Virus record (IMG/VR): IMGVR_UViG_3300029057_000206
Origin: a virus
DNA length: 64,000 nt
Direction: 5' to 3' (one strand)
Both the position numbers and the translations under genes were made by a program. Every line of letters begins with the position of its first letter. The stretch's first letter is position 1. The notes below the pieces were generated by a model, which ran no database searches, was not told where the DNA came from, and saw nothing but the letters and a program-made list of their open reading frames with translations. Shown piece after piece: positions 3,717-53,773 of the stretch.

Positions 3717-5409
3717 AAAGCCTGTATCCCAGACTTTCTCAGACCGTAGACAAAGTGCTCCGAGAAACTTCCGTTTCTCGGAGCATTTTTCTTTGTGTTT
3801 ATGAAATTTATTCCGAAAACAGGAAATTTTCCCTTGGATTATGCCATCCGTAATCCCCATTCCTGCTTGCATTTTGCAAGCTTTTTTAAATTCATGCACG
3901 CAAACGTAAGCGCGACTTTCATTGTCATCCGCGCTTTGCCATACAACTGCGTATATCGAAATCCGTGGTTTTCCTTTGCCGTTCCAAAGATTCTTTCAAT
4001 CGTTTCTTTTCTGTGTGAGTATAGCTCCTTCATTCCTTCTGTATGCCGGATATCCTCACATGTTTCCATATAGTCTTCCCATACATGTCTCGTAACAACT
4101 TTTACATGGTTCTTGCTTTCTGTACACTGCGAAAGATACTCGCACTTTTCGCAAATCTGTCCACAGCTTTTATACTCGCGATATCCATCCCGATTTGTCG
4201 TGCTGTAATGCAGAAAGTGATTCCCTGGACAAATATAAGCATCATTATACTCATCATATACATACTCAGATTTCCTGAAAAAGCCATCCTTTGTCATGGG
4301 ACGCTTGTAAGGAAAGACCGGCTTTATTCCATCATCCAAAAGTAGCTTTGCTATTGCAGGAGTTTTATACCCGGCATCAACGATACAGTATTTCATGCCG
4401 ATATCTGCAAGCTTATCGTAAAGGCCTTTAAAAGTTCGACTGTCATGCTCATTACCAGGGTTTACTGTAAAATCAATAATCCATCCATTTTTATCGCATG
4501 CTGTTTCAATCCCATAAGCAAACACATGCTTGTGCTCACCTTTCCGAAACCAGCCGCTCTCAGGATCTGTAGTGCTACACTTAATTGTTTTTTCATCTGA
4601 CGGAACATCATCCGTATAATCTTCAAACTTGTCGTTGCCACCGGAACCAGGTTTGTTGTTATCGTCTTTATCTTTCAACGGTTTCTTTCCGTGCGCTTCT
4701 CTGTCTGCGTTAATGTCCTGACGCAGCATGTCAGCATAAAATAAAGCTTCCTGTTTTGCGATTCGTTTCTGCATCTTTCTGTTGTTCGCCCGCGCTTTCA
4801 CATGTGTTGCATCAACAAAAATCTCTGTTGAATCAACCAGTTTGAAACGGTAACACTCCTCAAGGATACGCTGGAAAATCTGCTCGAATAAGTCGGTATC
4901 TTTAAAACGACGGGTATAGTTTTTCCCGAAAGTAGAAAAATGAGGGACCGGATCATAAAGTTCAAGTCCAAGGAACCAACGGTAAGCCATGTTTACTTCA
5001 ATCTCTTTGATTGTCTGCCGCATGCTTTTGATTCCATACAGGTATTGAATAAGCGGTATCTTAATAAGCGTAACCGGATCAATACTTGGTCTACCCATTC
5101 CGTCGGAATAAGTATCACGGACGAGATCATAGATGAATGTCCAGTCAATAGCTTTGTCAATAAGTCGTAGAAGATGATTCCGCGGAACAAGATCATCAAT
5201 ACATACCATCTGCATTTGCTTTCTTACTTTTTCTGTTTCTTGTGTCATCATAGAACAATACCGCCTTTTTTGATACCTTTATTATACCAAAAAGAGACTG
5301 AAAAGTCTTGAAAATACTGACTTTTAGCCTCTTTAATACAGAAAAATCCCCGGCAAAAAGCCGAGGACTTTGTCTACAGTCTGAGAAAGCCTGTATCCCA
5401 GACTTTCTT
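3717..5409 (-). mobile_element. IS1182-family insertion sequence (~1.69 kb)
   Basis: Imperfect terminal inverted repeats ctttctcagac(c/t)gtagacaaagt(g/c)ctc lie at 3735-3761 and 5361-5387. They are flanked by a ~20-bp direct repeat aaagcctgtatcccagactttc (3718-3740 and 5387-5409). A single transposase ORF lies inside. Confidence 0.7.
3839..5251 (-). CDS. IS1182-family (IS5/IS4-superfamily DDE) transposase
   Basis: 470 aa. The N-terminus has the transposase-InsH-like LVPRNHLLRLID motif, followed by a DDE domain and a C-terminal Cys-rich region typical of IS1182. Confidence 0.85.
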   Translation of the reverse strand: MMTQETEKVRKQMQMVCIDDLVPRNHLLRLIDKAIDWTFIYDLVRDTYSDGMGRPSIDPVTLIKIPLIQYLYGIKSMRQTIKEIEVNMAYRWFLGLELYDPVPHFSTFGKNYTRRFKDTDLFEQIFQRILEECYRFKLVDSTEIFVDATHVKARANNRKMQKRIAKQEALFYADMLRQDINADREAHGKKPLKDKDDNNKPGSGGNDKFEDYTDDVPSDEKTIKCSTTDPESGWFRKGEHKHVFAYGIETACDKNGWIIDFTVNPGNEHDSRTFKGLYDKLADIGMKYCIVDAGYKTPAIAKLLLDDGIKPVFPYKRPMTKDGFFRKSEYVYDEYNDAYICPGNHFLHYSTTNRDGYREYKSCGQICEKCEYLSQCTESKNHVKVVTRHVWEDYMETCEDIRHTEGMKELYSHRKETIERIFGTAKENHGFRYTQLYGKARMTMKVALTFACMNLKKLAKCKQEWGLRMA

Positions 5410-5418
5410 TTTCTTTCC

Positions 5419-5631
5419 TTACTTCGCCTCGATAATGAGTACGTTGTCTGATATCGTAATGTATCCGACATGCATGTCGAGGATTTCGTCGACCGGCTTT
5501 CCGTAGCCGTCTTTTAAAGTGCTGAATAGCACGGGTGCTTCGCGCCACTGTTTCCCATCGCGGCAGTTGTAAATTGCGTAATTGCAATTTGCATCGAAAC
5601 TATCCGAATAAATAAGATCTCCAACCAACAT
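5419..5631 (-). CDS. hypothetical small protein
   Basis: 70-aa ORF in a minus-strand 3-gene operon. Confidence 0.4.
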   Translation of the reverse strand: MLVGDLIYSDSFDANCNYAIYNCRDGKQWREAPVLFSTLKDGYGKPVDEILDMHVGYITISDNVLIIEAK

Positions 5632-5649
5632 ATGTTTTCCTCCTTGTGT

Positions 5650-5862
5650 TCAATCGCATGACGCCCATGCGACAGCTTCTTCGGCGGTATCGAACCAATC
5701 CGGCGTTTCAACTCCATCTTTTTCCAGATGGAATCCATACAGAATTTCTGTATTTGGATGTTCGCGGAGACATTCCTCAACTTCTGTATAAATATCTCCA
5801 TATATTCCGTCGCCACTATCGTTTGCGCAGACTACTGACAATTTGTATCCATTGATTAACAT
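5650..5862 (-). CDS. hypothetical small protein
   Basis: 70-aa ORF in the same operon. Confidence 0.4.
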   Translation of the reverse strand: MLINGYKLSVVCANDSGDGIYGDIYTEVEECLREHPNTEILYGFHLEKDGVETPDWFDTAEEAVAWASCD

Positions 5863-5874
5863 ACGTTTTTCCTC

Positions 5875-6378
5875 CTACCCGTAGTATTCCTGTTTGAGAA
5901 AATCTGGTTCTCCTTCAATTCCAAGCGAGTCCATGCATTCTTTACAAATGGATTTAAGTTTTTCTTGCGTTAAACTTTTTTCCTCTTCGTTGTAGTTCCA
6001 TGGGTAATCTTCTTGGAAAATGACAGCTGGATAAGTGTCACAATCTGGATCAGCTCCGTAATAGGAAAAACGGATGCCTGTTACACGAGTCATTACATTG
6101 CTGATGACAGCGCCTGCGCCCTGTGATCCGGAAGTTTGGCAGCTGTAGGAATCGAAAGTTTTTTCAATGATGTCTTCTAGTTCAGATTCATCCATTTTTT
6201 TTGGTTTCCCATTTTCATCTTTTACATTGAGACGTTCTGAAAACAGGTTGAAAAGTTCAACCTCTTCATTACTCATGCAAAAATGAAAAAGGTTATTTTC
6301 GAGAAATTCTTTGAATTTTTTTGGCTTACAATCGCAGTTAAATCCAATGCCGCAGTAAATGATTGAGTTCATATTCAT
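5875..6378 (-). CDS. hypothetical protein
   Basis: 167-aa ORF. It is first in the operon and is preceded on the minus strand by leader module L. Confidence 0.5.
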   Translation of the reverse strand: MNMNSIIYCGIGFNCDCKPKKFKEFLENNLFHFCMSNEEVELFNLFSERLNVKDENGKPKKMDESELEDIIEKTFDSYSCQTSGSQGAGAVISNVMTRVTGIRFSYYGADPDCDTYPAVIFQEDYPWNYNEEEKSLTQEKLKSICKECMDSLGIEGEPDFLKQEYYG

Positions 6379-6434
6379 ATTTTGTATCTCCTTTCGATAG
6401 TAAAAAAATTGTTTTACAACTTTAATATGAAATA
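6379..6434 (-). promoter_or_regulatory. leader module L (minus strand), divergent from the next copy
   Basis: The reverse complement reads tttcatattaaagttgtaaaac...cgaaaggagatacaaaatATG. Confidence 0.5.
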
Positions 6435-6466
6435 AAAAAGTTTTCTTCTGTGGTTGGATTTTTTCA

Positions 6467-6516
6467 TTTCATATTGTTGGCGTAAACAAAAAACCTGTGC
6501 GAAAGGAGAAAATGAG
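6467..6516 (+). promoter_or_regulatory. leader module L
   Basis: tttcatattgttggcgtaaacaaaaaacctgtgcgaaaggagaaaatgagATG. Confidence 0.5.
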
Positions 6517-6825
6517 ATGGAAAAGAAAGAGATTGGAACGATGAGAGAGAAAGAATTCAAAGATGCCCTGCAGGAATCCAGAGAATATCTCTCAGACTAT
6601 ATTTGCGTTAGCAAAGATGTAATCAGGGCAATCCAGCGGCATGCAAAGCGCTATGGCATCATGCCTGGAATCTGTGCATGGTATCTCGACTGGGAAGATT
6701 TTTGTTCTGACTGGTGTGATCAGTGTGGATATACGCGAACGCAGGCAAGAAAACTGTTGCATGGAGGAATCGGGGAATTTCAGGTTTTGCCAAATGGAAA
6801 CGGAATCATCCGGTATACATTGTAA
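6517..6825 (+). CDS. hypothetical protein (start reassigned from the ORF-track 6454 to the ATG that follows the leader RBS)
   Basis: 102 aa. GAAAGGAG sits 8 nt upstream of ATG 6517. Confidence 0.5.
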   Translation: MEKKEIGTMREKEFKDALQESREYLSDYICVSKDVIRAIQRHAKRYGIMPGICAWYLDWEDFCSDWCDQCGYTRTQARKLLHGGIGEFQVLPNGNGIIRYTL

Positions 6826-7148: not shown

Positions 7149-7952
7149 ATGAAAGTAAAGAAATTAGCGGATGGAACAATACAGTTCCAAAAAGATGAGC
7201 GCGATTATGAGGACGTTGTTTACACCGTTTTCTTTGAAACAAATTTACTGCTTCTTGGTTTGAAGAAAGAAGATACTTCTGAAACTGTGCAATTCTTTTA
7301 CAGCATGGATACCGACAAGAAATACGGCACGGTTCATTTGCCAGAAGATCAGAAACGGTTTGATGCTGGCGAGGTATTAACTCTGTATCCGATGGATATG
7401 ACGATGGATGACTATGAAGTTCTTTGCAATGAAAAACTTATGTTTGAGATGTCTGGAGGACAGGTAATGGATGCGTTCTCGATTAATGAGAAATCTTTTG
7501 TTTTGTGCCCGTACGTCGTTGTTCCACATAAGGAGAAACCTTCCTTCAAATGCCTTGTATTCGACTATGAAATGAACCCAGTGGATGGATATGCGGATGT
7601 TTGTGGAGACAATCCTTTCACAGTTATGAAAAGGGTAATGGAAAAACTTGGGTTGGATGAGGAGAGTTCTGTATCGCGCATTGAAACAACGTCTGCTTTA
7701 ATGCGTGCTAGATATCGTAAATGGTTTTACACATACGGAAGCAGTAACCAGTTTCCTTTCCAGAGTGGCTGGACAGAGGTGCTTGCTACTGATGCAAAAC
7801 GAGCAAATCAAACTTTTCGTGGTGTTCACCCAGATGTAACTCCTGGTTATTTGAATTGTGCGTACATGTACAGTCAGGATGAGTTCCCAATGAGTATGGC
7901 TTCCGCAGGAAATTATGGAAGCTGGACGCAGGAAACCCTGATTGCCAGATAG
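7149..7952 (+). CDS. hypothetical protein
   Basis: 267-aa ORF that directly follows the leader. Confidence 0.55.
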   Translation: MKVKKLADGTIQFQKDERDYEDVVYTVFFETNLLLLGLKKEDTSETVQFFYSMDTDKKYGTVHLPEDQKRFDAGEVLTLYPMDMTMDDYEVLCNEKLMFEMSGGQVMDAFSINEKSFVLCPYVVVPHKEKPSFKCLVFDYEMNPVDGYADVCGDNPFTVMKRVMEKLGLDEESSVSRIETTSALMRARYRKWFYTYGSSNQFPFQSGWTEVLATDAKRANQTFRGVHPDVTPGYLNCAYMYSQDEFPMSMASAGNYGSWTQETLIAR

Positions 7953-21371: not shown

Positions 21372-21385
21372 GAGGTGTAAGAATC

Positions 21386-22416: not shown

Positions 22417-22462
22417 AAATTCCTTTGACAATTTTCCAGATGGCGCAATATGTGTATTGTAA
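22417..22462 (+). promoter_or_regulatory. promoter element P copy 3
   Basis: ttcctttgacaattttccagatggcgcaatatgtgtattg. Confidence 0.5.
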
Positions 22463-22602
22463 AGGTCATAAACCGGGCTGCCAGGGTTACCGGCTGGCAG
22501 AAATCCTTTCGATATTTGTTTACGCTTCCGGGGAAACCCGGAAAGGAGCAGGAGGACAGCAGCACATGCTGCTTCCGGGTCCGATTCCCGGATGCTTCTT
22601 TT
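22455..22602 (+). ncRNA. promoter-P-driven structured small RNA, family A copy 1 (~150 nt)
   Basis: The 5' hairpin is gctgccag-ggttaccgg-ctggcag. The terminator is a T-arm-like hairpin ccgggtccgattcccgg followed by a U-run. Three copies have conserved stems and vary only in loops. An SD-preceded mini-ORF (MLLPGPIPGCFFYK...) lies inside. Confidence 0.45.
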
Positions 22603-22665: not shown

Positions 22666-24969
22666 ATGAATCAGAATAAGAAGATAGCAGAGAAAAAATC
22701 AAGACCATACCAGCAGGAATGCATTGATAAGGTAGACAGCTTAAAAGAAGGAAGATTCCTGATTGCTCTTGCAACAGGGCTTGGGAAGACATGGATCTTC
22801 TCCCACTTTAAGAGATACGGAAGGGTACTTATTCTTTCACACAGGGATGAACTGGTCAACCAGCCGAGACGGTATTTCGACTGTAGTTTTGGCGTAGAAA
22901 AGGCAGAAAACCATTCCAATGGGGAAGAGGTAGTATCTGCGAGTGTTCAGACACTCAGCCATGACTCCCGTCTTAAGCAGTATAAGCCGGACGATTTCCA
23001 CACGATCATCATTGATGAGGCGCACCACGCTGCCGCACCATCCTATAAGAAGATCTTAAATTATTTTTCCGGCGCTAAGCGTGTAATCGGTGTCACGGCA
23101 ACTCCGAAGCGTGGCGACAACGTCCGGTTAGATGACGTTTTTAACGAGATTATTTATGCAAAGGATCTTCGTTGGGGGATTAAAAATAAATATTTAAGTC
23201 CGGTGCACTGCCGGGAGGTCCGTGCAAAATATTCCCTGAAAGGCGTAAAAAAATCTATGGGGGATTTTAATGTATCCGATTTGGACGGTTGTATTACGGA
23301 AGAAGCTGTAATAAGTGTTGCAAAAGTTCTTACAGACTGTCTCCAGGAGAATCGGCATATTCTTATTTATTGTACTACTGTCAGAACCTGTAATTTCCTG
23401 AAGGCAGTAGTTGACAAACTGCTCCCGGAAAAAGAACGTGGCAGTGTTGCTGTTTTATCAGGGAAAACACAGGAAGAAGATAGAAAAAATATGCTTGATG
23501 GTTTTATGAACGGGAGTGTCCGCGCCATTATTAACTGCATGGTTTTAACAGAAGGTACAGATCTTCCTATTGCGGATACCATTATCAACTTCCGGCCGAC
23601 GTGCAACGCGTCTTTGTATCAGCAGATCATCGGAAGAGGAACCCGGCTCTATGAAGGTAAGGAAAACTGTTTATGCATTGATATTCTTCCAGATGATGGC
23701 AGCGGGACAAGAAATCTGTGTACAGCTCTTACTCTTTTTGGTATAGATGCAAAACTTCTTGGAAAGAAACAGTCTCGAATGCTTGAAGGTGAGATTGATC
23801 CGCTTGAGATTAGCGATGAAATTGCAGGACGATTTGCAGAACTTACAAAGGCGTATGAATATCGGTTGGAGCAGGTTAATCGCTTTGTGCAGGAGCAGGA
23901 AGAAATTATATCTTCTGCGCGGAAGAAACCACATGCAGATTTAAGCGACCTTGCGCATGCAGTAGATAAATATAATTCAAAGAAAATGGATGAATTCCAA
24001 AATGATTATGATTTTCTTGGAATGGATTACTCACTTATGCCGGATACGGAACATCGTTATTGTATCAAACCTACATGGAATGACCATATTTACCTTGCTG
24101 ATCCAGATGTTATGGGTAATACAACAGTTACGTTTGATCTTACTGCCAGTGTCGGGAAATATTATATCGGTGAAATGAAAATGCAGGATGCAATTTCATT
24201 TGTTCATGATTTTTGTATGGTATCTCCAGATTATATGAAATATTCCTGGAACGTGGCATTACAAGATGAATGGGGGAAAATAAAAGCAACTGAAAATCAA
24301 ATTGGACGTCTTATGAATGAGTATGACGGGTTTCACAAAGGAAATATTAACAAACTTCAAGCATCCAGACTGATTGATCTTGCCTCTCGTATTTCGAAGA
24401 TGAAGGCAGAGGGGAAAATGATGCTTATTACACCAAGAATGCAGGAAAAAACAATTGATAAAAAAAAGAAAATGTTTAAGGAAATACTCGAAAAGGAACT
24501 GAGGGCAAAAGAGCAGGGGCGTAGTGAGTTTGGAGAATTCCAGTCGAAAATCTTTGCTTTGGCAGAAAAAAAGAAAAAAGACGAAGAGAAATTAAAGAAC
24601 CAAAAGCCTTTGGAAGAAGAAATGCTCGAAAATGGGGCGATTACAGTTAATATTGCTGTTTTTAGTTCAAAAAAAACAGCAAGCGATGCGCAGATAAAAT
24701 TTCTTGGTAATTTAAAAGATAAATTAAAAAACAGAGGAGTGGCTGTCGATAAAAAAATTCCTTATATAGGAATGGGAGCAGAAGAGGCAAGTGTATATAT
24801 TACTATATTAAAAACGCTTGTAGATCGTAACGTAGACCTTATAAAATATGGTAAAAAAATTTATTTTAATCCAAATACAATCATGAGTGTTGTATTAAAA
24901 CTAAAGGACACTTCATCCAGAGAAATTAAATGTTGTATCCCGTTCGAAAAAATAGAAGAATTGAGATAA
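22666..24969 (+). CDS. SF2 DEAH-box helicase (COG1061/type-III-res-like core) with a ~350-aa K/E-rich C-terminal extension
   Basis: Motif I ATGLGKT, motif II IIIDEAHH, motif III TAT, motif VI QQIIGRGTR. There is no HD nuclease domain. Confidence 0.75.
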   Translation: MNQNKKIAEKKSRPYQQECIDKVDSLKEGRFLIALATGLGKTWIFSHFKRYGRVLILSHRDELVNQPRRYFDCSFGVEKAENHSNGEEVVSASVQTLSHDSRLKQYKPDDFHTIIIDEAHHAAAPSYKKILNYFSGAKRVIGVTATPKRGDNVRLDDVFNEIIYAKDLRWGIKNKYLSPVHCREVRAKYSLKGVKKSMGDFNVSDLDGCITEEAVISVAKVLTDCLQENRHILIYCTTVRTCNFLKAVVDKLLPEKERGSVAVLSGKTQEEDRKNMLDGFMNGSVRAIINCMVLTEGTDLPIADTIINFRPTCNASLYQQIIGRGTRLYEGKENCLCIDILPDDGSGTRNLCTALTLFGIDAKLLGKKQSRMLEGEIDPLEISDEIAGRFAELTKAYEYRLEQVNRFVQEQEEIISSARKKPHADLSDLAHAVDKYNSKKMDEFQNDYDFLGMDYSLMPDTEHRYCIKPTWNDHIYLADPDVMGNTTVTFDLTASVGKYYIGEMKMQDAISFVHDFCMVSPDYMKYSWNVALQDEWGKIKATENQIGRLMNEYDGFHKGNINKLQASRLIDLASRISKMKAEGKMMLITPRMQEKTIDKKKKMFKEILEKELRAKEQGRSEFGEFQSKIFALAEKKKKDEEKLKNQKPLEEEMLENGAITVNIAVFSSKKTASDAQIKFLGNLKDKLKNRGVAVDKKIPYIGMGAEEASVYITILKTLVDRNVDLIKYGKKIYFNPNTIMSVVLKLKDTSSREIKCCIPFEKIEELR

Positions 24970-25030: not shown

Positions 25031-25078
25031 AAATTTTTTTGACGTTTGTTTAAATGGCGCAATATTCATAACGAAGGA
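25031..25078 (+). promoter_or_regulatory. promoter element P copy 4, acting as the leader of CRISPR array 1
   Basis: ttttttgacgtttgtttaaatggcgcaatattcataacg, ~70 nt upstream of the first repeat. Confidence 0.45.
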
Positions 25079-25143: not shown

Positions 25144-25376
25144 GTTGCACCACGCAAGGGTGCAGGGGTGAAATATTATACTGAATCGTCGCTGCCTGCA
25201 TAGATATAGTTGCATCCCTTATGGGATGTATGGGTTGAAATTCAATAGAAACAGATGCATTCGGAGGTGTTACAAGTTGCACCCCCGCAAGGGGTGCATG
25301 GGTTGAAAATAAGAAATGGTAGGAAGGAATTCAGATATGAACATTAGTTGCATCCCGCAAGGGTGCAGGGGTGAAG
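25144..25376 (+). CRISPR. CRISPR array 1: 4 degenerate type I-C-like repeats (31-34 nt) and 3 spacers (34-37 nt)
   Basis: Repeats are gttgcaccacgcaagggtgcaggggtgaaat, gttgcatcccttatgggatgtatgggttgaaat, gttgcacccccgcaaggggtgcatgggttgaaaa and gttgcatcccgcaagggtgcaggggtgaag. They end in the I-C-like (G)GTTGAAAT. Spacer 2 is near-identical to a spacer in array 3. Confidence 0.75.
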
Positions 25377-31191: not shown

Positions 31192-31238
31192 TGATTTACT
31201 TTGACGATTTTTCAAAAGGCGCAATATGTGTAATGAAG
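31192..31238 (+). promoter_or_regulatory. promoter element P copy 5
   Basis: tttactttgacgatttttcaaaaggcgcaatatgtgtaatg. Confidence 0.5.
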
Positions 31239-33980: not shown

Positions 33981-34028
33981 AAAATCTTTGACGATTTTTC
34001 AAAAGGCGCAATATGTATAGTGTAAAGG
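33981..34028 (+). promoter_or_regulatory. promoter element P copy 6
   Basis: aaaatctttgacgatttttcaaaaggcgcaatatgtatagtg. Confidence 0.5.
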
Positions 34029-34165
34029 TCATAAACCGAGCTGCCAGGGTTACCGGCTGGCAGAAAATCCTTTCGAAAAATGTTTACGTTCCGGGAAATC
34101 CCCGGAAAGGATAGTGGGTACGCAGCGCAAGTTATTCCGGGTTCGACTCCCGGATATCCTTTTTC
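34019..34165 (+). ncRNA. structured small RNA family A copy 2
   Basis: It has the same hairpins as copy 1. The terminator is ccgggttcgactcccgg followed by a U-run. Confidence 0.45.
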
Positions 34166-35387: not shown

Positions 35388-35461
35388 CGCCGCCTGCGGG
35401 ATTCGAACCCGCGGATAAAGAGTTCAAAGCTCCCTGCGTTAACCTTTTCGCCAAGGCGGAG
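35388..35461 (-). tRNA. tRNA-Gln(TTG)-like, degenerate (acceptor mismatch, G-U pairs in the anticodon stem)
   Basis: T-arm gcgggTTCGAATcccgc. Anticodon loop CTTTGAA. Confidence 0.35.
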
Positions 35462-35532
35462 CACACCCGGAAGGACTCGAACCCTCGTTACCGGTTTTGG
35501 AGACCAGTTTCTGTCCATCAGACAGGTGCATA
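35462..35532 (-). tRNA. tRNA-Trp(CCA)-like with a reduced D-arm (possible pseudo-tRNA)
   Basis: Anticodon arm ctggtCTCCAAAaccgg. T-arm gagggTTCGAGTccttc. The acceptor needs two G-U pairs. Confidence 0.35.
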
Positions 35533-35533
35533 A

Positions 35534-35604
35534 CAGGCGATAATGGAATCGAACCATTGTTTTCTGAGTCAGAATCAGATGTCTTACCATTGAACGAATC
35601 GCCC
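35534..35604 (-). tRNA. tRNA-Gln(CTG)
   Basis: Anticodon arm tctgaTTCTGACtcaga. T-arm aatggTTCGATTccatt. Position 1:72 is a G-U wobble. Confidence 0.5.
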
Positions 35605-35606
35605 AG

Positions 35607-35680
35607 TATCCCCAAAGGGACTCGAACCCTTAACCGACAGATTAGAAATCTGTTGCTCTTTCCAATTGAGCTATGGGGAT
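35607..35680 (-). tRNA. tRNA-Arg(TCT)
   Basis: Full cloverleaf: acceptor ATCCCCA/TGGGGAT, D-arm GCTCaattggaaaGAGC, anticodon arm acagaTTTCTAAtctgt, T-arm aagggTTCGAGTccctt. Confidence 0.75.
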
Positions 35681-35686
35681 ATATAG

Positions 35687-35776
35687 CGCAGACACCGGGG
35701 ATCGAACCCGGACAGCGGGTGTGCCGCATGCCACATTAGCAGTGTGGAGGGGTACCATTTACCTTTATATGTCTGC
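35687..35776 (-). tRNA. tRNA-Ser(GCT), class II
   Basis: Acceptor GCAGACA/TGTCTGC. Anticodon arm ccacaCTGCTAAtgtgg. Long variable arm. T-arm ccgggTTCGATCcccgg. Confidence 0.6.
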
Positions 35777-35781
35777 ATAAG

Positions 35782-35853
35782 AGGCATCGGAGGGGATCGA
35801 ACCCTCGCCTTCCGGGTTGCAGCCGGACGCCTTCGCCGTTTGGCTACGATGCC
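35782..35853 (-). tRNA. tRNA-Cys(GCA)
   Basis: Acceptor GGCATCG/CGATGCC. Anticodon arm tccggCTGCAACccgga. T-arm gagggTTCGATCccctc. Confidence 0.75.
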
Positions 35854-35883
35854 ATATAATTCTTCCCGATAAGAGAAGATGAG

Positions 35884-35967
35884 CGCTGGGGCAGGGAGTC
35901 GAACCCTGATATCCTTTCGGAATGACGGTTTTCAGGACCGTTGCTTTACCAGTTGAGCCACCACAGC
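35884..35967 (-). tRNA. tRNA-Ser(TGA), class II, with an unusual C33
   Basis: Anticodon arm acggtCCTGAAAaccgt. Variable-arm hairpin tccGAAAgga. T-arm cagggTTCGACTccctg. Confidence 0.55.
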
Positions 35968-36005
35968 AAAAATAAAAGCATACACCTCTCAATCGAAAGA
36001 TGTAT
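35960..36005 (-). terminator. terminator inside the tRNA array (minus strand) that splits it into two transcription units
   Basis: The reverse complement reads aagcataca...tgtatgctt followed by ttatttttg. Confidence 0.45.
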
Positions 36006-36212
36006 GCTTTGCAATTCCAGGTATTTCCAATATTCTCCCGGAAATTTCCCTACAATGACCACATTTCTTTCAATTTGAGACAATATTTATTTGCACGACA
36101 ACTACGCCAGATACATGACTGCGACTGACTCATACTTGCCTGTGAATATTGTCTCATTACTGCTGTAATCATTGATTTTCCCTTCCTTTCCTTGGTTTTC
36201 TTGAATATTTAG

Positions 36213-36286
36213 TGTGTCTGGTGGGACTTGAACCCGACGACCCCACGATTAAAAGTCGCGTGCTCTGCCAACTGAGCTACAGACAC
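36213..36286 (-). tRNA. tRNA-Lys(TTT)
   Basis: Acceptor GTGTCTG/CAGACAC. D-arm GCTCagttggcaGAGC. Anticodon arm cgcgaCTTTTAAtcgtg. The T-stem is imperfect. Confidence 0.6.
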
Positions 36287-36291
36287 ATAAG

Positions 36292-36363
36292 CGGATCAGG
36301 AGGGGATCGAACCCTCATCTTCCGGTAGACAGCCGGATGTACTAGCCGCTATACTACAGATCC
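36292..36363 (-). tRNA. tRNA-Asp(GTC)
   Basis: Anticodon arm tccggCTGTCTAccgga. T-arm gagggTTCGATCccctc. Confidence 0.65.
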
Positions 36364-36367
36364 ATAA

Positions 36368-36440
36368 AGCTCCCGTCCGGCTTCGAACCGGAAACCTTCT
36401 GATTACAAGTCAGATGCACTACCAGTTGTGCTACAGGAGC
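36368..36440 (-). tRNA. tRNA-Thr(TGT)
   Basis: D-arm GCACaactggtaGTGC. Anticodon arm tctgaCTTGTAAtcaga. T-arm tccggTTCGAAGccgga. Confidence 0.7.
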
Positions 36441-36446
36441 AGGAAC

Positions 36447-36519
36447 ACTTCCGACGGGTGCTGCCCCGCTATCTCCGCCGTGACAGGGCGGTGACTCTGT
36501 TGTTTGTCCTCGGAAGTAA
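36447..36519 (-). pseudogene. tRNA-like pseudogene (7-bp acceptor cttccga/tcggaag and a GTC-anticodon-like hairpin, but no TTCGA T-loop)
   Basis: The reverse complement reads CTTCCGAgg...ccgccCTGTCACggcgg...TCGGAAG. Confidence 0.3.
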
Positions 36520-36524
36520 ATAAG

Positions 36525-36606
36525 TGCGCCGGGGAGGACTCGAACCTCCGGTGTTTCTTTGTGGCTGATTTACAGTCAGCTGCTGTCGCCTCTGAGCCAC
36601 CGACGC
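36525..36606 (-). tRNA. tRNA-Tyr(GTA), class II length, with an unstructured variable region
   Basis: Acceptor GCGTCGG/CCGGCGC. Anticodon arm gctgaCTGTAAAtcagc. T-arm ggaggTTCGAGTcctcc. Confidence 0.55.
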
Positions 36607-36611
36607 ATAAG

Positions 36612-36683
36612 CTGGTCCGGAGGGTCTCGAACCCTCAACGCCCCGGTTAACAGCCGGGTGCTCTACCATTGAGCTACGGATCA
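36612..36683 (-). tRNA. tRNA-Asn(GTT)
   Basis: Starts with U1-A72. D-arm GCTCaatggtaGAGC. Anticodon arm cccggCTGTTAAccggg. T-arm gagggTTCGAGAccctc. Confidence 0.7.
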
Positions 36684-36684
36684 G

Positions 36685-36756
36685 AGCATGTGACGGGTCT
36701 CGAACCCGCCCGTCCTGCTTGGAAGGCAGGTGTGCCGCCAACAACACTTCACATGC
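36685..36756 (-). tRNA. tRNA-Gly(TCC)
   Basis: Acceptor GCATGTG/CACATGC. Anticodon arm cctgcCTTCCAAgcagg. T-arm gcgggTTCGAGAcccgt. Confidence 0.7.
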
Positions 36757-37261
36757 ATGCGGATAAAAGAAGTGCCTGTTTTCTCTTATCCATTCAGTTT
36801 TTTTACCGCATCGCTGCGGAGTGGACAGGAGTGGTAACGATCCACCCTGTAAGGATTTTCAGTCCTTCGCTAATCCATCTCAGCTACCTGTCCATGGCTT
36901 TTTCTGCAATAAAAAAGCCGCATCAAGAAATTTCCTCTTCTCTCTGCGGTCATCTGCGTTTTGCAATATTTCGGTTTTAAGTGCCTGGTTTAAAATCGAA
37001 ATCGACCGCGGGAAGGTGTATCATAATAGTTCTGTCCCCATGTTTTCCCGGATTTTGAGCATGAGAAACTAAACATATTGCTGAAATCGCCGTATGTTCT
37101 ACAATCATTATTAAAATTTTTACTACTCATCATCTTTAACATGGTTTTCTTTTCCTTTCATTTTAATTAATGCTGGATAAACAAAAAGCCCGTCACTTAA
37201 CTCAAAGCTACACATCCAAATAGCTCTGAGTTAAAAGACAGGCACTTCTTTTATCTCATGC
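36755..37261. repeat. ~500-bp segment bounded by ~24-bp inverted repeats (gcatgcggataaaagaagtgcctgt / acaggcacttcttttatctcatgc) that abuts the 5' end of tRNA-Gly
   Basis: The IRs can be read directly, with one indel. The interior has no convincing ORF. Confidence 0.45.
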
Positions 37262-38105: not shown

Positions 38106-38152
38106 GGAAATTTTTGACGAAATTTCAAAAGGCGCAATATATGTAATGAAAG
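38106..38152 (+). promoter_or_regulatory. promoter element P copy 7 (divergent from the leader L just upstream)
   Basis: aaatttttgacgaaatttcaaaaggcgcaatatatgtaatg. Confidence 0.5.
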
Positions 38153-38501: not shown

Positions 38502-38608
38502 TTGCATTCCAGTGGAATGCATGGGGTGAAAGAAATAGGCAAATCGCATGACAATTTCTGAAATTAAATTGTTGCGCTCCCGTGGAGGGGGGCGTATGGA
38601 TTGAAATG
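38501..38608 (+). CRISPR. mini-array: 2 degenerate I-C-like repeats and 1 spacer (36 nt)
   Basis: Repeats gttgcattccagtggaatgcatggggtgaaag and gttgcgctcccgtggaggggggcgtatggattgaaat. Spacer aaataggcaaatcgcatgacaatttctgaaattaaatt. Confidence 0.6.
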
Positions 38609-38990: not shown

Positions 38991-39005
38991 TTTCAAAACA
39001 TTTCC

Positions 39006-39052
39006 AAAAACTTTTGACGATTTTTTAAATGGCGCAATATGTATCATGTAAA
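39006..39052 (+). promoter_or_regulatory. promoter element P copy 8
   Basis: aaacttttgacgattttttaaatggcgcaatatgtatcatg. It contains a 14/15 match to spacer S1 of array 4. Confidence 0.5.
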
Positions 39053-39190
39053 GGTCATAAACCGAGCTGCCAGGGTTATCGGCTGGCAGAAATCTTTTCG
39101 ATATTTGTTTACACTCCGGGGAAACCCGGAAGGGGTAGTGAGGACGCAGCGTGTGCTGTTTCCGGGTTCGATTCCCGGGTATCCCTTTTG
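39045..39190 (+). ncRNA. structured small RNA family A copy 3
   Basis: gctgccagggttatcggctggcag...ccgggttcgattcccgg followed by a U-run. A second similar terminator hairpin lies at 39402-39435. Confidence 0.45.
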
Positions 39191-40195: not shown

Positions 40196-40300
40196 GCTGC
40201 ATCATGTGCGGGGGTGTATGGATTGAAATGTCGGAGTATGGTGTAAGAATCATATATATTCCTACGTTGTGCTCCTCCCGGTTGGTGCACGGGTTGAAAT
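40196..40300 (+). CRISPR. mini-array: 2 degenerate repeats and 1 spacer (36 nt), abutting the stop codon of the previous gene
   Basis: Repeats gctgcatcatgtgcgggggtgtatggattgaaat and gttgtgctcctcccggttggtgcacgggttgaaat. Confidence 0.55.
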
Positions 40301-41871: not shown

Positions 41872-41891
41872 GTAAGAAGATATACTTTACT

Positions 41892-42110
41892 GTTGCGCCC
41901 CATTGGGTGCATGGGTTGAAATCTTTATGACCTTCTGAAAAGTGAGGGCATCTTAGTTGCACCCCCGCAAGGGATGTATGGGTTGAAATTCAATAGAAAC
42001 AGATGCATTCGAAGGCGTTACAAGTTGCACCCCGCGAGGGGTGTATGGGTTGAAATTGCAGAAAGCTCAGGATTGGAAGGTTGCATCCTATGGGATGCAT
42101 GGATTGAAAC
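41892..42110 (+). CRISPR. CRISPR array 3: 4 degenerate repeats and 3 spacers (34, 34, 23 nt)
   Basis: Repeats gttgcgccccattgggtgcatgggttgaaat, gttgcacccccgcaagggatgtatgggttgaaat, gttgcaccccgcgaggggtgtatgggttgaaat and gttgcatcctatgggatgcatggattgaaac. Confidence 0.75.
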
Positions 42111-42205
42111 GAACATATTTGTTATTATTTATTATTGAGATCAGAAAGGTCTGCAGTCAGTTAATCTGGCTGCAGATTTTTTTTGCAATTTTTTAAAAAT
42201 TTTCC

Positions 42206-42252
42206 AAAATCTTTTGACGATTTTTTAAAAGGCGCAATATACATATTGAAGG
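42206..42252 (+). promoter_or_regulatory. promoter element P copy 9. It contains an exact 15-nt match (42204-42218) to spacer S1 of array 4, overlapping the -35-like TTGACG
   Basis: ttccaaaatcttttgacgattttttaaaaggcgcaatatacatattg. Confidence 0.55.
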
Positions 42253-42467: not shown

Positions 42468-42514
42468 AAAATTCTTTGACGATTTTTTAAAAGGCGCAAT
42501 ATGTGTATTGAAGG
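42468..42514 (+). promoter_or_regulatory. promoter element P copy 10 (proximal promoter of the cas operon)
   Basis: aaattctttgacgattttttaaaaggcgcaatatgtgtattg. Confidence 0.55.
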
Positions 42515-42547: not shown

Positions 42548-42578
42548 AGTTAAAAGTTGTGCCCCTATGGGGTGCATG
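42548..42578 (+). repeat. solitary degenerate CRISPR repeat (gttgtgcccctatggggtgcatgggtaataag) between promoter P10 and the cas5c RBS
   Basis: Matches the local repeat consensus at ~24/31 positions. There is no adjacent spacer or second repeat. Confidence 0.45.
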
Positions 42579-42595
42579 GGTAATAAGAGAAAGGA

Positions 42596-43270
42596 ATGGA
42601 AAAAGAAAAAATGGGAGTGAAACTAAAAGTCTGGGGAGATTACGCATTGTTCACCAGACCAGAACTGAAAACTGAACGGTATACATACGATGTGATGACA
42701 CCGTCGGCGGCTAGAGGAATTCTGGAATCTATCTACTGGCATCCGGGACTTCGGTGGTATGTAGACAAGATTCATGTATTAAATCCGATTGCCACTACGA
42801 GCGTGAGAAGAAATGAACTTCTCAGTAAGATACCAAAGTCAAATATGCTGCAGGCATACAACGGCGGGGATGTGAAACTGTATAACTCGTCAAGAGACGA
42901 TATTATCCAGAGGGCATCTGTTATTCTCCGGGATGTCTGCTATGTGATTGAGGCGCATTTTGAAATGACAGGGAAAGCGAGCCCAACAGACAGCCCGGCA
43001 AAGTTTATAAGTATCTTTAACAACAGGGCAAGAAAAGGGGCATGTTATTCGATGCCGTATTTTGGTGTAAGGGAATTCCCGGCACACTTTGAACTCTGCG
43101 AAGGAGATGAAAAGATCCCATCCTACTATGAAGGACTTCCGGACAAAGATCTCGGGCTGATGCTTTATGATCTGGATTACTCCTGCGGTAGAGATATCCA
43201 GCCAATGTATTATCATGCGATTATGAAAAACGGCGTTATTGACGTTGGGAACAGTGAGGTGCTTCGATGA
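42596..43270 (+). CDS. cas5c: Cas5c (Cas5d), the type I-C pre-crRNA-processing Cascade subunit
   Basis: The N-terminus has the hallmark VKLKVWGDYALFTRPE. 224 aa. Confidence 0.85.
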   Translation: MEKEKMGVKLKVWGDYALFTRPELKTERYTYDVMTPSAARGILESIYWHPGLRWYVDKIHVLNPIATTSVRRNELLSKIPKSNMLQAYNGGDVKLYNSSRDDIIQRASVILRDVCYVIEAHFEMTGKASPTDSPAKFISIFNNRARKGACYSMPYFGVREFPAHFELCEGDEKIPSYYEGLPDKDLGLMLYDLDYSCGRDIQPMYYHAIMKNGVIDVGNSEVLR

Positions 43271-45006
43271 TCCTTCAGTCACTTGTGAAATTATATGAAA
43301 CACTTGCGGATCAGGGAAAAGTGTCCCGTCCTGGCTGGTGTAATGCAAAGGTATCCTATGCGGTGGTTTTAAACCATGATGGGACGATTAAAGATATTGT
43401 TTCCGTGAAACAGAAAGTGAAGAGAGGAAAGAAGACTGTTGAAATTCCAATAATTATGCAGGTTCCAGAGATGGTCACCCGCGCTAACAACATTGCCTCC
43501 AGCTTTCTCTGCGAAAATGCAAAGTATCTCTTTGGGATTGACGAAAAGATGAGTTTGCGTACACTGGAATGTTTTAAGGCGGCAAAGAAAAAACATCTTG
43601 ATATTCTTGATGTTGTGGATTCACCTGTAGCACAGACGGTATGTAACTTTTTCCGTTCATGGGATCCGGAACAGGCGTTGGATCAACCGGCTGTTGCAAA
43701 ACTTGCAGAAGAGTTTTATAAAGGCGGAAACCTCGTTTTTGAAGTAGATGGGGAATATGTGCATGATAATGAAGAAGTCCGCAGGGCATGGATGGATTAC
43801 AGCAGTGTACCATATGAAATGGTAACTGGAAGATGCCTTATTACTGGAGAGGAAGCGGAGATTGCCCGCACGCACGGGAAAATCAAAGGAGTTCCGGGAG
43901 CACAGTCATCTGGCGCGTCGCTTGTATCATTTAACGGAGCATCCCTTGAGTCTTATGAAAAAACACAGAGCTACAACGCGCCGATTAGCACCTATGCGGC
44001 GTATGCATATGTGACCGCGCTGAATTACTTGCTTTCTACGGACGGGTATCACAGCAAGGTAGGAGATTCCATGGTGGTTTTCTGGACAGATTCCGGGGAT
44101 GTGGATGATGTGAGCAGACTGCGGAAGATGATGGGAAGCATCAATGAAAAGGATCACACCCCTACAGATACGGATGAAAAACTGTACGTCCTCTGCCTTG
44201 CACCAAATGCCGGGCGAATTGCAGTCCGGTTCTTCTATGAGGATGCGATCGGGGTAATCTGGGAAAACCTGTCCGAACATGCCAGTCGGATGAAGATTGT
44301 AAAACCAGTATTTGAGGATCAAGAATTTATCAATATCTGGCAGATGCTCATGGAGACAGTCAACCAGAATCTTACAGATAAAACACCTGTCCCGCATATG
44401 TCAGCAATGACGTTACAGTCAGTCATTTCGGATACACCGTATCCGCAGAGTCTGTATGCAGGTGTGTTATCTCGTATCCGCGCGGAGCACAAAGGTGTTA
44501 CTTACAGAAAAGCATCGATTATTAAAGCTTTTTTAATAAAGAACTACAAATGGGAGGAAGGAAAAAATATGGAAGCATTAAATGAAGGCTGTAAGGATCG
44601 GGCATATATCCTTGGAAGACTGTTTGCGGTTATGGAAAAGGCACAGAAAGAAGCAGTTGGCAATATCAACCAGACAATTTGTGATAAGTTTTACAATTCC
44701 GCGTGCACAACACCAAGATCGATCTTTCCAGTACTGATCAGGCTATCTAACAGTCATTTAAGTAAGTTGAAACGGACAAAACCGGGGAGAGGATATTATT
44801 TTACAGCTAAAATGCAGGATTTAATGGATAAAATTCCGGTAACAGATGATGATCCGGGATTCCCGCGGCGTTTCTCATATGAGGATCAGGGTAAGTTTGC
44901 ACTTGGTTATTATCATCAGATGCGGGCGGAATATACAAGCAGTAAGTTAAAAGATAATGATTCAGAAGGTGATCAGACAAATGCAGAGAATATGGAGGAA
45001 AACTAA
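43267..45006 (+). CDS. cas8c: Cas8c (Csd1), the type I-C large subunit
   Basis: The N-terminus MILQSLVKLYETL is typical of Csd1. 579 aa. Its start overlaps the cas5c stop. Confidence 0.85.
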   Translation: MILQSLVKLYETLADQGKVSRPGWCNAKVSYAVVLNHDGTIKDIVSVKQKVKRGKKTVEIPIIMQVPEMVTRANNIASSFLCENAKYLFGIDEKMSLRTLECFKAAKKKHLDILDVVDSPVAQTVCNFFRSWDPEQALDQPAVAKLAEEFYKGGNLVFEVDGEYVHDNEEVRRAWMDYSSVPYEMVTGRCLITGEEAEIARTHGKIKGVPGAQSSGASLVSFNGASLESYEKTQSYNAPISTYAAYAYVTALNYLLSTDGYHSKVGDSMVVFWTDSGDVDDVSRLRKMMGSINEKDHTPTDTDEKLYVLCLAPNAGRIAVRFFYEDAIGVIWENLSEHASRMKIVKPVFEDQEFINIWQMLMETVNQNLTDKTPVPHMSAMTLQSVISDTPYPQSLYAGVLSRIRAEHKGVTYRKASIIKAFLIKNYKWEEGKNMEALNEGCKDRAYILGRLFAVMEKAQKEAVGNINQTICDKFYNSACTTPRSIFPVLIRLSNSHLSKLKRTKPGRGYYFTAKMQDLMDKIPVTDDDPGFPRRFSYEDQGKFALGYYHQMRAEYTSSKLKDNDSEGDQTNAENMEEN

Positions 45007-45007
45007 G

Positions 45008-45919
45008 ATGAGCACACCAATTAAGAACAGATATGATTTCGTAGTATTATTCGACGTAGAGAATGGAAATCCGAACGGTGATCCGGATGCCGGAAATATG
45101 CCGAGAGTTGATCCAGAGACTGGCATCGGGCTTGTGACAGATGCCTGCATAAAGCGCAAGATCCGTAATTATGTGGAAACTGTAAAAGAAGATGCAGCCG
45201 GGTTCAAGATCTATATTAAAGAGGGGGTCCCGCTGAACCGGAGTGACCTTAAGGCAGTCGAAAGTCTTGGTATTGACGTCGGTGACGACAAAAATGCACT
45301 TGAAGATGTAAAGAAGCTGAAAAAGACAGATGAAGATGTGGATCTTAAGCTCCGTGACTATATGTGTAGTAATTTCTATGATATCCGTACATTTGGTGCT
45401 GTCTTGACTACCTTTACAAAGGCGGCATTAAACTGTGGACAGGTACGTGGCCCGGTACAGATTGGTTTTGCAAAAAGTATTGATCCTGTTTTCAGCCAGG
45501 ATATTACTGTAACCAGAGTTGCAATCACAACGGAAAAGGATGCGGAAAAGAAAAATACAGAAATGGGAAGAAAGAGTATTATTCCTTATGGACTTTACCG
45601 TGTGGAGGGATATATTTCTGCTAATCTTGCCCGTAAGACCACCGGCTTTTCTGAAGACGATCTGGAACTGCTTTGGGAAGCAATCATTAACATGTTTGAG
45701 AATGACCATTCCGCAGCACGCGGGAAGATGGCAGTGCGTGAGCTCATCGTATTCAAGCATAACAGCGAGCTTGGCAATTGTCCATCGTACAAACTGTTTG
45801 AAACTGTTGATGTTAAGAAGAATGATGGTGTTGAGTTTCCTCGTAAATATTCCGATTATGCAGTGACTATTCATGAGGATGCGATTCCGGATGGCGTGAC
45901 AATGACTCGCAAAATCTAA
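45008..45919 (+). CDS. cas7c: Cas7c (Csd2), the type I-C backbone subunit
   Basis: Contains the hallmark NPNGDPDAGNMPR. RBS ggagga, then ATG 45008 (the track ORF start 44957 overlaps cas8c). Confidence 0.85.
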   Translation: MSTPIKNRYDFVVLFDVENGNPNGDPDAGNMPRVDPETGIGLVTDACIKRKIRNYVETVKEDAAGFKIYIKEGVPLNRSDLKAVESLGIDVGDDKNALEDVKKLKKTDEDVDLKLRDYMCSNFYDIRTFGAVLTTFTKAALNCGQVRGPVQIGFAKSIDPVFSQDITVTRVAITTEKDAEKKNTEMGRKSIIPYGLYRVEGYISANLARKTTGFSEDDLELLWEAIINMFENDHSAARGKMAVRELIVFKHNSELGNCPSYKLFETVDVKKNDGVEFPRKYSDYAVTIHEDAIPDGVTMTRKI

Positions 45920-46168: not shown

Positions 46169-46724
46169 AGCTACGCCCCATGGAGGGGCGTATGGATTGA
46201 AATACCAAAATCTTTTGACATTCTTATAAATGGTAACAGCTACGTCTTATGGGGTACGTATGGATTGAAATCATAATAATTGTAGAGATCTCAATACAAA
46301 ATAAAGCTGCGTCTCATGGAATACGTATGGATTGAAATGAAAAGGCGAGTTTGCGAAAGCAGATATTGGAATGTTGCGTCTCGTGGAGTACGTATGGATT
46401 GAAATTCCAACTTTAACTACATAACTATCCTGATAAACTTGCTGCACCCCATGGAGAGTGTATGGATTGAAATTTAAAAAATCATGGATAACATCTGCGA
46501 TAAGACGTTGCACCTCGCTAGGGGTGTATGGGTTGAAATTTCCATAATCGGTAGCCAATTATTATCATTAGGTGTTGCACCCCATAGAGGGTGTATGGAT
46601 TGAAATTATATAAAAATGATGAATATGTAAAAAAAATAAAAGAGTTACGCTCCATGGAGTGCGTATGGCTTGAAACCTCTTATTTTTTTAAAGATATCAC
46701 AATTACGCCCAAAGTGGGCTTACG
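46169..46724 (+). CRISPR. CRISPR array 4: 8 mutually divergent repeats plus a truncated ninth, and 8 spacers (26-38 nt)
   Basis: For example agctacgccccatggaggggcgtatggattgaaat, gttgcgtctcgtggagtacgtatggattgaaat, gttgcacctcgctaggggtgtatgggttgaaat and ttacgctccatggagtgcgtatggcttgaaac. The stem halves change in a compensatory way. The last partial repeat ends 22 nt before the ATG of the family-X membrane gene. Confidence 0.75.
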
Positions 46725-53581: not shown

Positions 53582-53773
53582 TTTCTTGCGGAGCAGAGCA
53601 GAGGAAGGCTCACCGGGCTCATGACCTGGGTGTCGGATGTTCGATTCCTTTCTCCGCAATTAATTTTAAAAAAGGGAGGTTATAACATGTTCTAACTGAT
53701 TAAAAAACATAAACAAGCATTCGTTCAAAAGAAAGATTCGTATGTGAAAAAAGGATGGGAGGAAAAGAAAATC

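Follow-up and report, generated by a model that had tools for sequence, protein, structure and literature searches.

A type I-C CRISPR effector module without a nearby cas3 gene, carried by a large gut element, probably silences a promoter of its host Roseburia faecis

Does a CRISPR spacer that partly matches promoter-like DNA of its own element regulate that element, or does its true target lie elsewhere? The question is raised by a 64,000-nt stretch of IMG/VR virus record IMGVR_UViG_3300029057_000206 (the window, throughout), which carries the type I-C effector genes cas5c, cas8c and cas7c, a CRISPR array (array 4) that opens with spacer S1, and a recurrent promoter-like element, here called P. 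An earlier sequence-only reading had noticed that S1 shares 15 nt with a P copy in front of the cas operon, and had proposed that Cascade (CRISPR-associated complex for antiviral defence) guided by S1 represses P in a closed feedback loop. We found a far longer match in the chromosome of Roseburia faecis, beside pstSCA, and consider it probable that S1 is an ordinary full-length CRISPR RNA (crRNA) spacer whose cognate protospacer lies there. Probably, too, the nuclease-less Cascade uses S1 to silence the host promoter at this site, P', and S1 resembles DNA of its own element only because the promoters are homologous.

The target came to light only through a scan with the P motif, in an 8-kb block (L028) of the chromosome of R. 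faecis JCM 17581. In the R. faecis chromosome the S1 protospacer follows a canonical type I-C protospacer-adjacent motif (PAM) and reads aaTTC followed by ACCAAAATCTTTTGACATTCTTATAAATGGCAACA; in JCM 17581 S1 matches 33/35 bases at 7816-7850, with TTC at 7813-7815 (aaTTC followed by ACCAAAATCTTTTAACATTCTTATAAATGGCAACA). Among 28 further R. faecis loci, all with the PAM intact, the match is 34/35 in 19, where the -35 box is TTGACA, and 33/35 in the nine with TTAACA. The element itself occurs in two lineages, and the second leads to the same place. Lineage A comprises the window and ten contigs with identical Cas8c; its sister, lineage B (Cas8c 88% identical, synonymous divergence dS≈0.8), has a different spacer set without S1. 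Lineage-B spacer Y3 matches 34/34, with a TTC PAM, on the opposite strand at L028 7743-7776, only 39 nt from the S1 site, and by alignment the Y3 site appears intact in 29/29 loci. Together the two sites span 108 bp of a ~3.4-Mb chromosome, and S1 and Y3 are each retained in every sampled member of their own lineage. Repeat type and PAM are both those of type I-C, with repeats ending in ATGGATTGAAAT and TTC directly 5' of both protospacers, and at 29 loci these spacers match a regulatory region of the host chromosome next to a PAM, a trait of the kind described by Al-Shayeb et al.

At the target locus pstS, pstC and pstA lie on one strand, and the other strand carries P', a 50-aa open reading frame (ORF) and a MerR gene (154 aa), reading towards pstA. 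Going 5' from P', one meets the Y3 site, then a hairpin resembling a repeat, with ATGGATTGAAAT at its end, and next a P copy of canonical form; beyond them lies a 170-aa gene in divergent orientation, followed by variable DNA with a SoFic gene or a cassette of a MarR-like and a 252-aa gene. P' is a diverged member of the P family in which TTTGAC, AAA.GGC and ATAT are invariant in the alignment; S1 covers it from 11 nt 5' of the -35 box up to where the ATAT box begins, and the target segment is essentially invariant in 27 aligned loci. A strong Shine-Dalgarno sequence precedes a start inside the 50-aa ORF, and from there translation would give a hydrophobic peptide of 29 aa, basic in its tail (MITYSTLFEFCKLIVAIISLIFQIFNHKK); this is most likely the real product, and the predicted peptide appears to resemble a type I toxin. 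Of the two alleles of the gene, one is present in 7291 collection blocks and the other in 7351, several-fold above the 1584 of the element, and the gene adjoins pstA in 22/22 loci fetched via the two alleles, an arrangement common to all 29 target loci.

Further observations concern the same locus. The -35 box of P' is polymorphic (L028 7828-7833, with the equivalent positions in L045-L070), its TTGACA and TTAACA forms being linked to the two 50-aa ORF alleles; the type strain JCM 17581 has TTAACA and one strict P-motif match in its whole genome. The solitary repeat-like unit at L028 7632-7668, a hairpin plus ATGGATTGAAAT located ~15 nt 3' of the canonical P copy, scores as a terminator on the minus strand; within the locus, no seed match exists for the 45 nt on its 3' side. 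Proteins of the target locus have no homologues in the window. The cassette of a MarR-like gene (319-322 aa) and the 252-aa gene, preceded by a 51- or 72-aa ORF, is found both at the target locus (L045 10523-13128) and in the element (L081-L090, ~4150-6760), where it adjoins a ~3760-aa ORF; its presence in both contexts shows that genes have moved between the element and a pst-adjacent chromosomal hotspot. It also explains why the same longest-contig value, 385,989, was obtained for a protein of the element and for one of the target locus, which we had considered as a sign of co-occurrence and set aside.

S1 itself belongs to a regular array. Spacers are 33-37 nt long and the 33-nt repeats end in ATTGAAAT; those of array 4 end in GTATGGATTGAAAT, with repeat ends from 46203 to 46676. 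The interval first assigned to S1, 46204-46236 (33 nt), lies inside the 35-nt spacer, whose true end is 46238 when repeats of 33 nt are used. All eight repeats of the array differ from one another, and their stems stay paired through compensatory changes. S1 is identical in 11/11 lineage-A arrays, and spacers S1-S7 with their diverged repeats are invariant across the window and the ten contigs with identical Cas8c. These ten relatives (contigs L001-L010, ~12900-13690) carry three to five additional leader-side spacers with identical repeats, making 10-12 spacers in all, with S1 in fourth or fifth place behind newer ones. Array 4 hence behaves as a normal, polarised, actively growing array, and from the extra leader-side spacers it is evident that uptake goes on, with neither cas1 nor cas2 nor cas4 in the vicinity. 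The trailer spacer S7 (window 46607-46643; L011 13132-13164; L012 13202-13235) is very A/T-rich and is the only spacer common to both element lineages, with small changes.

How, then, does the self-match arise? The P motif is TTGAC-N8-A.A.GGCGCAATAT, and the window holds ten copies at ≤1 mismatch, where 0.3 are expected by chance, plus a degenerate one at 59027, all on the + strand, which bears out the eleven occurrences counted earlier. The 15-mer CCAAAATCTTTTGAC is found exactly at 42204-42218 and nowhere else in the window outside the array, with TTT at 42200-42202 on its 5' flank, both as first described. It had been called the 5' seed-side end of S1; it comprises positions 2-16, and there is a mismatch at position 1, where the spacer has A and the target T, while at the far end 10/19 PAM-distal bases pair and 9/19 do not. 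An overall identity of 24/33 was reproduced, but is little informative because an unrelated site at 19554 also reaches 24/35 with S1. The 14/15 match at 39004-39018 holds, in a stretch that overlaps the P copy at 39014-39040, and the third, weak match is 13/15 at 11587-11601, where 13/16 at 11590-11605 had been given. Two P copies precede the cas operon, and the 15-mer is confined to the distal copy, the proximal one having 12/15.

Aligned in register, S1 matches every P copy at 17-25/35 positions through a common A/T-rich upstream tract, TTGAC and AAATGG, and because this holds for every copy the likeness is non-random. S1 therefore resembles the whole P family and not a single site; indeed, it looks like a family member. 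The flanks of the other P copies are AAA, TCT, CTT, ATT or TAT, none TTC. Taken by itself the 15-mer is borderline as a chance event: of 20000 shuffled S1 sequences 136, and of 20000 Markov 35-mers 141, had an exact match of ≥15 nt in the array-masked window, giving p≈0.007 per spacer and ≈0.08 over 12 spacers, where ~0.002 per spacer had been estimated. For the remaining 11 spacers the longest window matches are 9-14 nt, as chance predicts.

Profile scores of Cas5c, Cas8c and Cas7c lie far above curated Pfam and NCBIfam cut-offs and identify a type I-C effector module. The ratio of nonsynonymous to synonymous divergence (dN/dS) between lineages A and B is 0.04-0.05 for cas5c, 0.08 for cas8c and 0.05 for cas7c (dS≈0.3-0.9), values that indicate strong purifying selection and suggest that a Cas3-less effector has been kept by it. 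The absence of cas3 from the cas genes, already remarked, was confirmed: no cas3, cas1, cas2 or cas4 domain was detected among ~50 scanned window ORFs, nor in precomputed Pfam lists within ±10 kb at 16 related loci, hence the scanned loci lack a complete type I-C system with Cas3 and Cas1-Cas2-Cas4. The only large helicase, at 22666-24969, was considered as a Cas3 substitute and rejected, being a generic superfamily 2, RadD- or restriction-like protein of 767 aa without an HD domain. This gene, which ends 70 nt 5' of a P copy and mini-array 1, gives only a faint match (26 bits) to an 'alternative Cas3' model; it recalls the helicase in place of Cas3 noted for huge-phage type I-C variants.

We propose that Cascade loaded with S1 would recognise TTC and form an R-loop over the -35 box and spacer region of P', blocking transcription in the manner of CRISPR interference (CRISPRi) without cutting the chromosome of the element's own cell. 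A crRNA against P' would resemble every P copy because P' and P share the A/T-rich upstream tract, TTGAC and AAATGG, and the 15-mer at 42204-42218 would be a by-product. The element's own P copies differ from P' at the last PAM base, at position 1 and in the PAM-distal half, which by their sequence appear to be exactly the places where discrimination is expected. Silencing is favoured because no nuclease gene was seen, the effector is under purifying selection and two lineages converge on 108 bp. That the lineages reach the same region with different spacers points to selection for hitting it. Binding without cleavage at a P-type promoter, as envisaged in the sequence-only reading, thus stays the most likely mode, with the target moved from the element's own promoters to a host one; repression of P' would take the place of cleavage, and co-residence of element and target in one cell is suggested solely by how common the target locus is. 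P and P' are presumed promoters on the grounds of position and conservation.

Several findings weigh against this proposal. The consensus sigma-70 scan calls neither P nor P', as there is no canonical -10. PAM-distal position 31 of S1 is mismatched in 29/29 target loci, the sole constant mismatch; it also defeated the strict S1 patterns (every 6th base free, or 3' half only), which for this reason found no match in IMG/VR, JGI metagenomes or GTDB genomes. Among the fetched contigs no sample identifier is common to the element and target lists, and priming could be an alternative cause of two close-set spacers. The absence of cas3 and of cas1, cas2 and cas4 covers the near loci, the rest of the 200-386-kb contigs and the host chromosome not having been searched. 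Lastly, no targets for spacers other than S1 and Y3 were found in the searches made: a concatenated search of INPHARED gave no match for 16 spacers (all window and lineage-A spacers except S7), and spacers A1_S1/A3_S2, X_b, S6 and S3 had none in IMG/VR.

The original idea, in which S1 is a regulatory crRNA that binds its own P copies, including the cas5c promoter, through a 15-nt PAM-proximal match and so closes a loop over the arrays, now seems very unlikely to us. It draws on the exact 15-mer at positions 2-16 with its TTT flank, on TTT being the second most efficient PAM, after canonical TTC, in Legionella pneumophila type I-C (PMC5602111), on the repression exerted by Salmonella type I-E CreR, for which 15 consecutive PAM-proximal matched bases suffice (10.1101/2023.03.10.532045), and on the P copy at 25039, directly 5' of mini-array 1. 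P thus does stand before an array, but the closed loop lost its support once a 34/35 target with TTC was found in R. faecis and lineage B was seen to keep the cas5c promoter, with 14/15 bases of the 15-mer, in the absence of S1; no lineage-B spacer matches its own locus, promoters included, over more than 13 nt. In ten relatives S1 has other spacers on either side of it, within a regular array. The self site combines a non-canonical PAM, the position 1 mismatch and the nine PAM-distal mismatches, the P copy nearest cas5c offers 12/15 behind TAT, and 8/11 P copies have a flank that is neither TTC nor TTT. Moreover, with no Cas3 to avoid, partial complementarity would be needless for a regulatory spacer. 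At its own P copies S1 would have at most weak cross-reactivity.

Conventional interference or exclusion, with S1 and Y3 as immune memories of mobile DNA that carries the P' region and with Cas3 supplied in trans, is in our judgement unlikely. Near-perfect matches behind canonical PAMs have the look of immune spacers, the array acquires spacers in a polarised manner, and primed acquisition could give two nearby protospacers. P promoters, a hairpin resembling a repeat and a gene cassette are common to the P' region and the element, and the pst-adjacent region is variable and island-like, with a SoFic gene and with the MarR-like plus 252-aa cassette, the latter being found in the element as well. 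Chromosomal type I-C systems of Roseburia, the source of the closest Cas8c relatives, might provide Cas3, but at ~50% identity its compatibility with this Cas8c is doubtful, and cas3 is missing near the cas genes in 17 loci. The target, furthermore, adjoins core pst genes and is invariant in the 27 aligned loci, and a marker gene present in ~14,600 blocks against 1584 for the element is not what a rare invader would show; nor did the spacers match anything in IMG/VR or INPHARED. If immunity were nevertheless the explanation, element-bearing cells could not carry the target, and the pairing would mark a conflict between related elements or strains. Self-targeting spacers commonly go with defective systems, and S1 and Y3 might alternatively be functionless pieces of host DNA, taken up by accident by a partly decayed system that lacks a nuclease and tolerated since no cut is made. 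In keeping with such decay, no nuclease gene was seen and the repeats of the old S1-S7 block have all diverged from one another. Improbable as it is, this neutral origin would have to accommodate three cas genes with dN/dS of 0.04-0.08, repeat stems that keep pairing by compensatory changes, and two independent spacers of two lineages that fall within 108 bp of a ~3.4-Mb chromosome and are retained in all sampled members of their own lineage.

A more elaborate form of host silencing, which we regard as rather unlikely, is a trans-acting addiction or counter-defence circuit similar to CreTA, in which the 29-aa peptide behind P' would be a toxin or an abortive-infection effector of the host, kept silent by the element's Cascade with S1 as the guide in lineage A and Y3 in lineage B. 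Loss of the element or inhibition of Cascade would de-repress the toxin, and the balanced TTGACA/TTAACA polymorphism would tell hosts dependent on repression from those that are not.

Silencing of P' was compared with known systems of similar logic. As in CreR/CreA and CreTA (10.1101/2023.03.10.532045; 10.1101/2023.03.03.530964), a type I Cascade would be guided to a promoter and repress it; the target here includes a small toxin-like gene, and the 15-nt self-match, which covers the TTGAC of P in front of the cas genes, is PAM-proximal and within the working range of Salmonella CreR. CreR/CreA guides, however, are stand-alone degenerate mini-arrays or solitary repeats in cas intergenic regions, whereas S1 sits in a seven-spacer array. 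They have a canonical PAM, seeds conserved together with their targets among relatives, partial complementarity that avoids Cas3 and no fully matching protospacer elsewhere; S1 has a 34/35 target behind TTC in another replicon or locus, is missing from a sister lineage that keeps the promoter, and faces a non-canonical PAM and a position-1 mismatch at its self site. Cracr RNAs (10.1101/2024.10.29.618823), which silence cas genes or CRISPR-safeguarding toxins, are likewise mobile-element guides in array-like units directed at the host promoter of a small toxin-like gene. They hijack host Cas proteins and rely on partial complementarity, whereas this element has its own Cascade and a near-full match; the solitary repeat of the host locus has no seed match to P', which does not mark the locus as a CreTA module. 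Two possible local guides of CreR type were also considered: the short third spacer of array 3 was rejected (best match 16/23, no seed match), and, in both the window and the host locus, what lies 3' of a solitary or terminal repeat gave no PAM-flanked seed match.

By analogy, the best fit is the class of huge-phage or plasmid-like CRISPR-Cas systems that lack adaptation or nuclease genes and have spacers on host intergenic regions, for which blocking of host promoters has been proposed on large mobile elements (Al-Shayeb et al. 2020, PMC7162821). Common traits are an element of large size that encodes tRNAs as well as a ligase and a CCA-adding enzyme, compact arrays, a type I-C-like module without Cas1, Cas2 and Cas3, and a spacer that hits a host intergenic region. 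Our case differs in that the host is a prevalent human-gut Firmicute, no phage hallmark was identified in 64 kb, and one host promoter region, with a promoter of the family to which the element's own P belongs, is hit by both of the diverged lineages. Canonical type I-C of L. pneumophila (PMC5602111) shares the Cas5c, Cas8c and Cas7c profile matches, 33-nt repeats, 33-37-nt spacers, TTC and polarised gain; here cas3, cas1, cas2 and cas4 are absent beside the effector genes in 17 loci, the repeats of one array all differ, and solitary repeats and mini-arrays lie between genes. In engineered cells Cascade without Cas3 is reported to silence promoters (PMC4288158); the mechanism that we propose is the same as described there, in a natural, mobile-element-borne and predicted instance.

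The idea that a mobile element may naturally turn CRISPRi on a gene of its host comes from huge-phage genomes, and documentation is scarce. The present case offers a culturable host, R. faecis, a 108-bp target and a predicted repression of a small peptide/MerR operon; the element is present in >1,500 assembly blocks, and conserved spacers of two deeply diverged lineages hit one host promoter region. It also counsels caution, as seed-side partial self-matches to repeated promoter families can mirror homology to a true target instead of autoregulation. Coordinates of the features in the window are collected in Table 1.

Table 1. Positions of the spacer, arrays, P copies, S1 self-matches and cas genes in the 64,000-nt window.
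Feature	Position	Strand	Remarks
Spacer S1, array 4	46204-46238	+	35 nt with 33-nt repeats: ACCAAAATCTTTTGACATTCTTATAAATGGTAACA; follows repeat 1
CRISPR array 4	46171-46676	+	Eight 33-nt type I-C-like repeats, seven spacers (S1-S7)
Partial S1 self-match	42203-42237	+	25/35 (24/33) ungapped; positions 2-16 exact; PAM TTT at 42200-42202
Second partial S1 self-match	39003-39037	+	25/35; 14/15 over the 15-mer (39004-39018); PAM ATT
P copy distal to cas5c	42214-42240	+	Contains exact 15-mer; starts unit just 3' of terminator-like hairpin
P copy proximal to cas5c	42476-42502	+	S1 12/15, 22/35 in register; PAM TAT
P copy	11597-11623	+	S1 23/35 in register; PAM AAA
P copy	13012-13038	+	Motif match
P copy	22425-22451	+	Motif match
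P copy	25039-25065	+	~145 nt 5' of mini-array 1
P copy	31201-31227	+	Motif match
P copy	33988-34014	+	Motif match
P copy	38114-38140	+	Motif match
P copy	39014-39040	+	Overlapped by second S1 self-match
Degenerate P copy	59027-59053	+	GGATAAATAT
cas5c	42611-43270	+	219 aa as called in related contigs; ORF opens at 42596; PF09704 2.5e-38, TIGR01876 176 bits
cas8c/csd1	43267-45006	+	579 aa; PF09709 3e-165, TIGR01863 400 bits
cas7c/csd2	45008-45919	+	303 aa; PF05107 1e-107, TIGR02589 342 bits
Array 3	41890-42110	+	Four repeats, three spacers, the last only ~21-23 nt; directly 5' of cas promoter region
Terminator-like hairpin and T-run	42143-42183	+	Between array 3 and the P copy at 42214
Degenerate repeat-like hairpin	42556-42587	+	gttgtgcccctatggggtgcatgggtaataag in cas5c 5' leader; read by comparison with repeats
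Mini-array 1	25209-25309	+	Two repeats, one spacer
Mini-array 2	40197-40300	+	Two repeats, one spacer
Solitary repeat	38575-38607	+	

The window is part of a large element, which may be a giant island, a plasmid or a phage, associated with R. faecis, a host named by metagenome-assembled genomes (MAGs), and common in human gut metagenomes. Its exact Cas8c, Cas7c and CCA-adding enzyme are proteins named R. faecis MAG, and the nearest Cas8c beyond its own 90% cluster are ~50% identical type I-C proteins of Roseburia/Eubacterium. The exact Cas8c occurs in 1584 public assembly collection blocks, on contigs up to 376 kb, and the contigs fetched with it are nearly all from human-gut metagenomes; contigs of the element are 200-386 kb and never above 1 Mb, and its lineages have diverged to dS≈0.8 while the host target locus is invariant. 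A PHROGs search identified no structural or replication phage hallmark, and no conjugation hallmark was identified, in the 64-kb window; the window DNA had no match in INPHARED and PLSDB, and Cas8c had none in IMG/VR.

The genes of the window lie almost all on one strand; they encode 14 tRNAs and a CCA-adding enzyme, and there are also a partial NAD-ligase (LigA) gene, methylases, PcfJ, LPD1, a flotillin, and insertion sequence (IS) and TnpB genes. Thirteen tRNA genes form a cluster on the - strand (35388-36893) inside an otherwise + strand gene block, and the 14th is at 53587-53659 (+), making 14 Rfam tRNA matches in all. The CCA-adding enzyme (2323-3705) and the partial NAD-ligase gene mark the left edge, and the left part is interrupted by a DDE transposase IS (3839-5251, -) and a TnpB/IS605-type gene (9610-10872, +), insertions whose presence differs among related contigs. 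Three P copies are followed by the same hairpin-containing leader (22452-22520, 34015-34085 and 39041-39110; aaaggtcataaaccgRgctgccagggttaYcggctggcagaaa), which matched no Rfam family at gathering score. P-type promoters together with type I-C-like repeat units, among them a ATGGATTGAAAT-ATATTGTAACA duplication in tandem, were also seen at 5300-5440 of contig L036 from the gut Lachnospiraceae isolate MGYG-HGUT-00136, where they adjoin homologues of target-locus genes, hence this architecture is not confined to R. faecis.

Among the smaller repeat loci, array 3 is absent in lineage B, and lineage-A contig L001 retains only its short spacer. A 14-mer of the A2 spacer at 21384, which lies over a ribosome-binding site and start codon, is a mid-spacer match and was treated as chance. 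The mini-array 1 spacer (25242-25275) is 32/34 identical to array 3 spacer 2 (41990-42023), so that one guide is retained in two variants, each in a different array. The degenerate repeat-like unit 5' of cas5c consists of the hairpin plus ATGGGT with its 3' handle mutated to AATAAG; it spans up to the cas5c ribosome-binding site and ends 8 nt before the first ATG, a position at which Cas5c or Cascade might act on its own mRNA, by binding it or by processing it.

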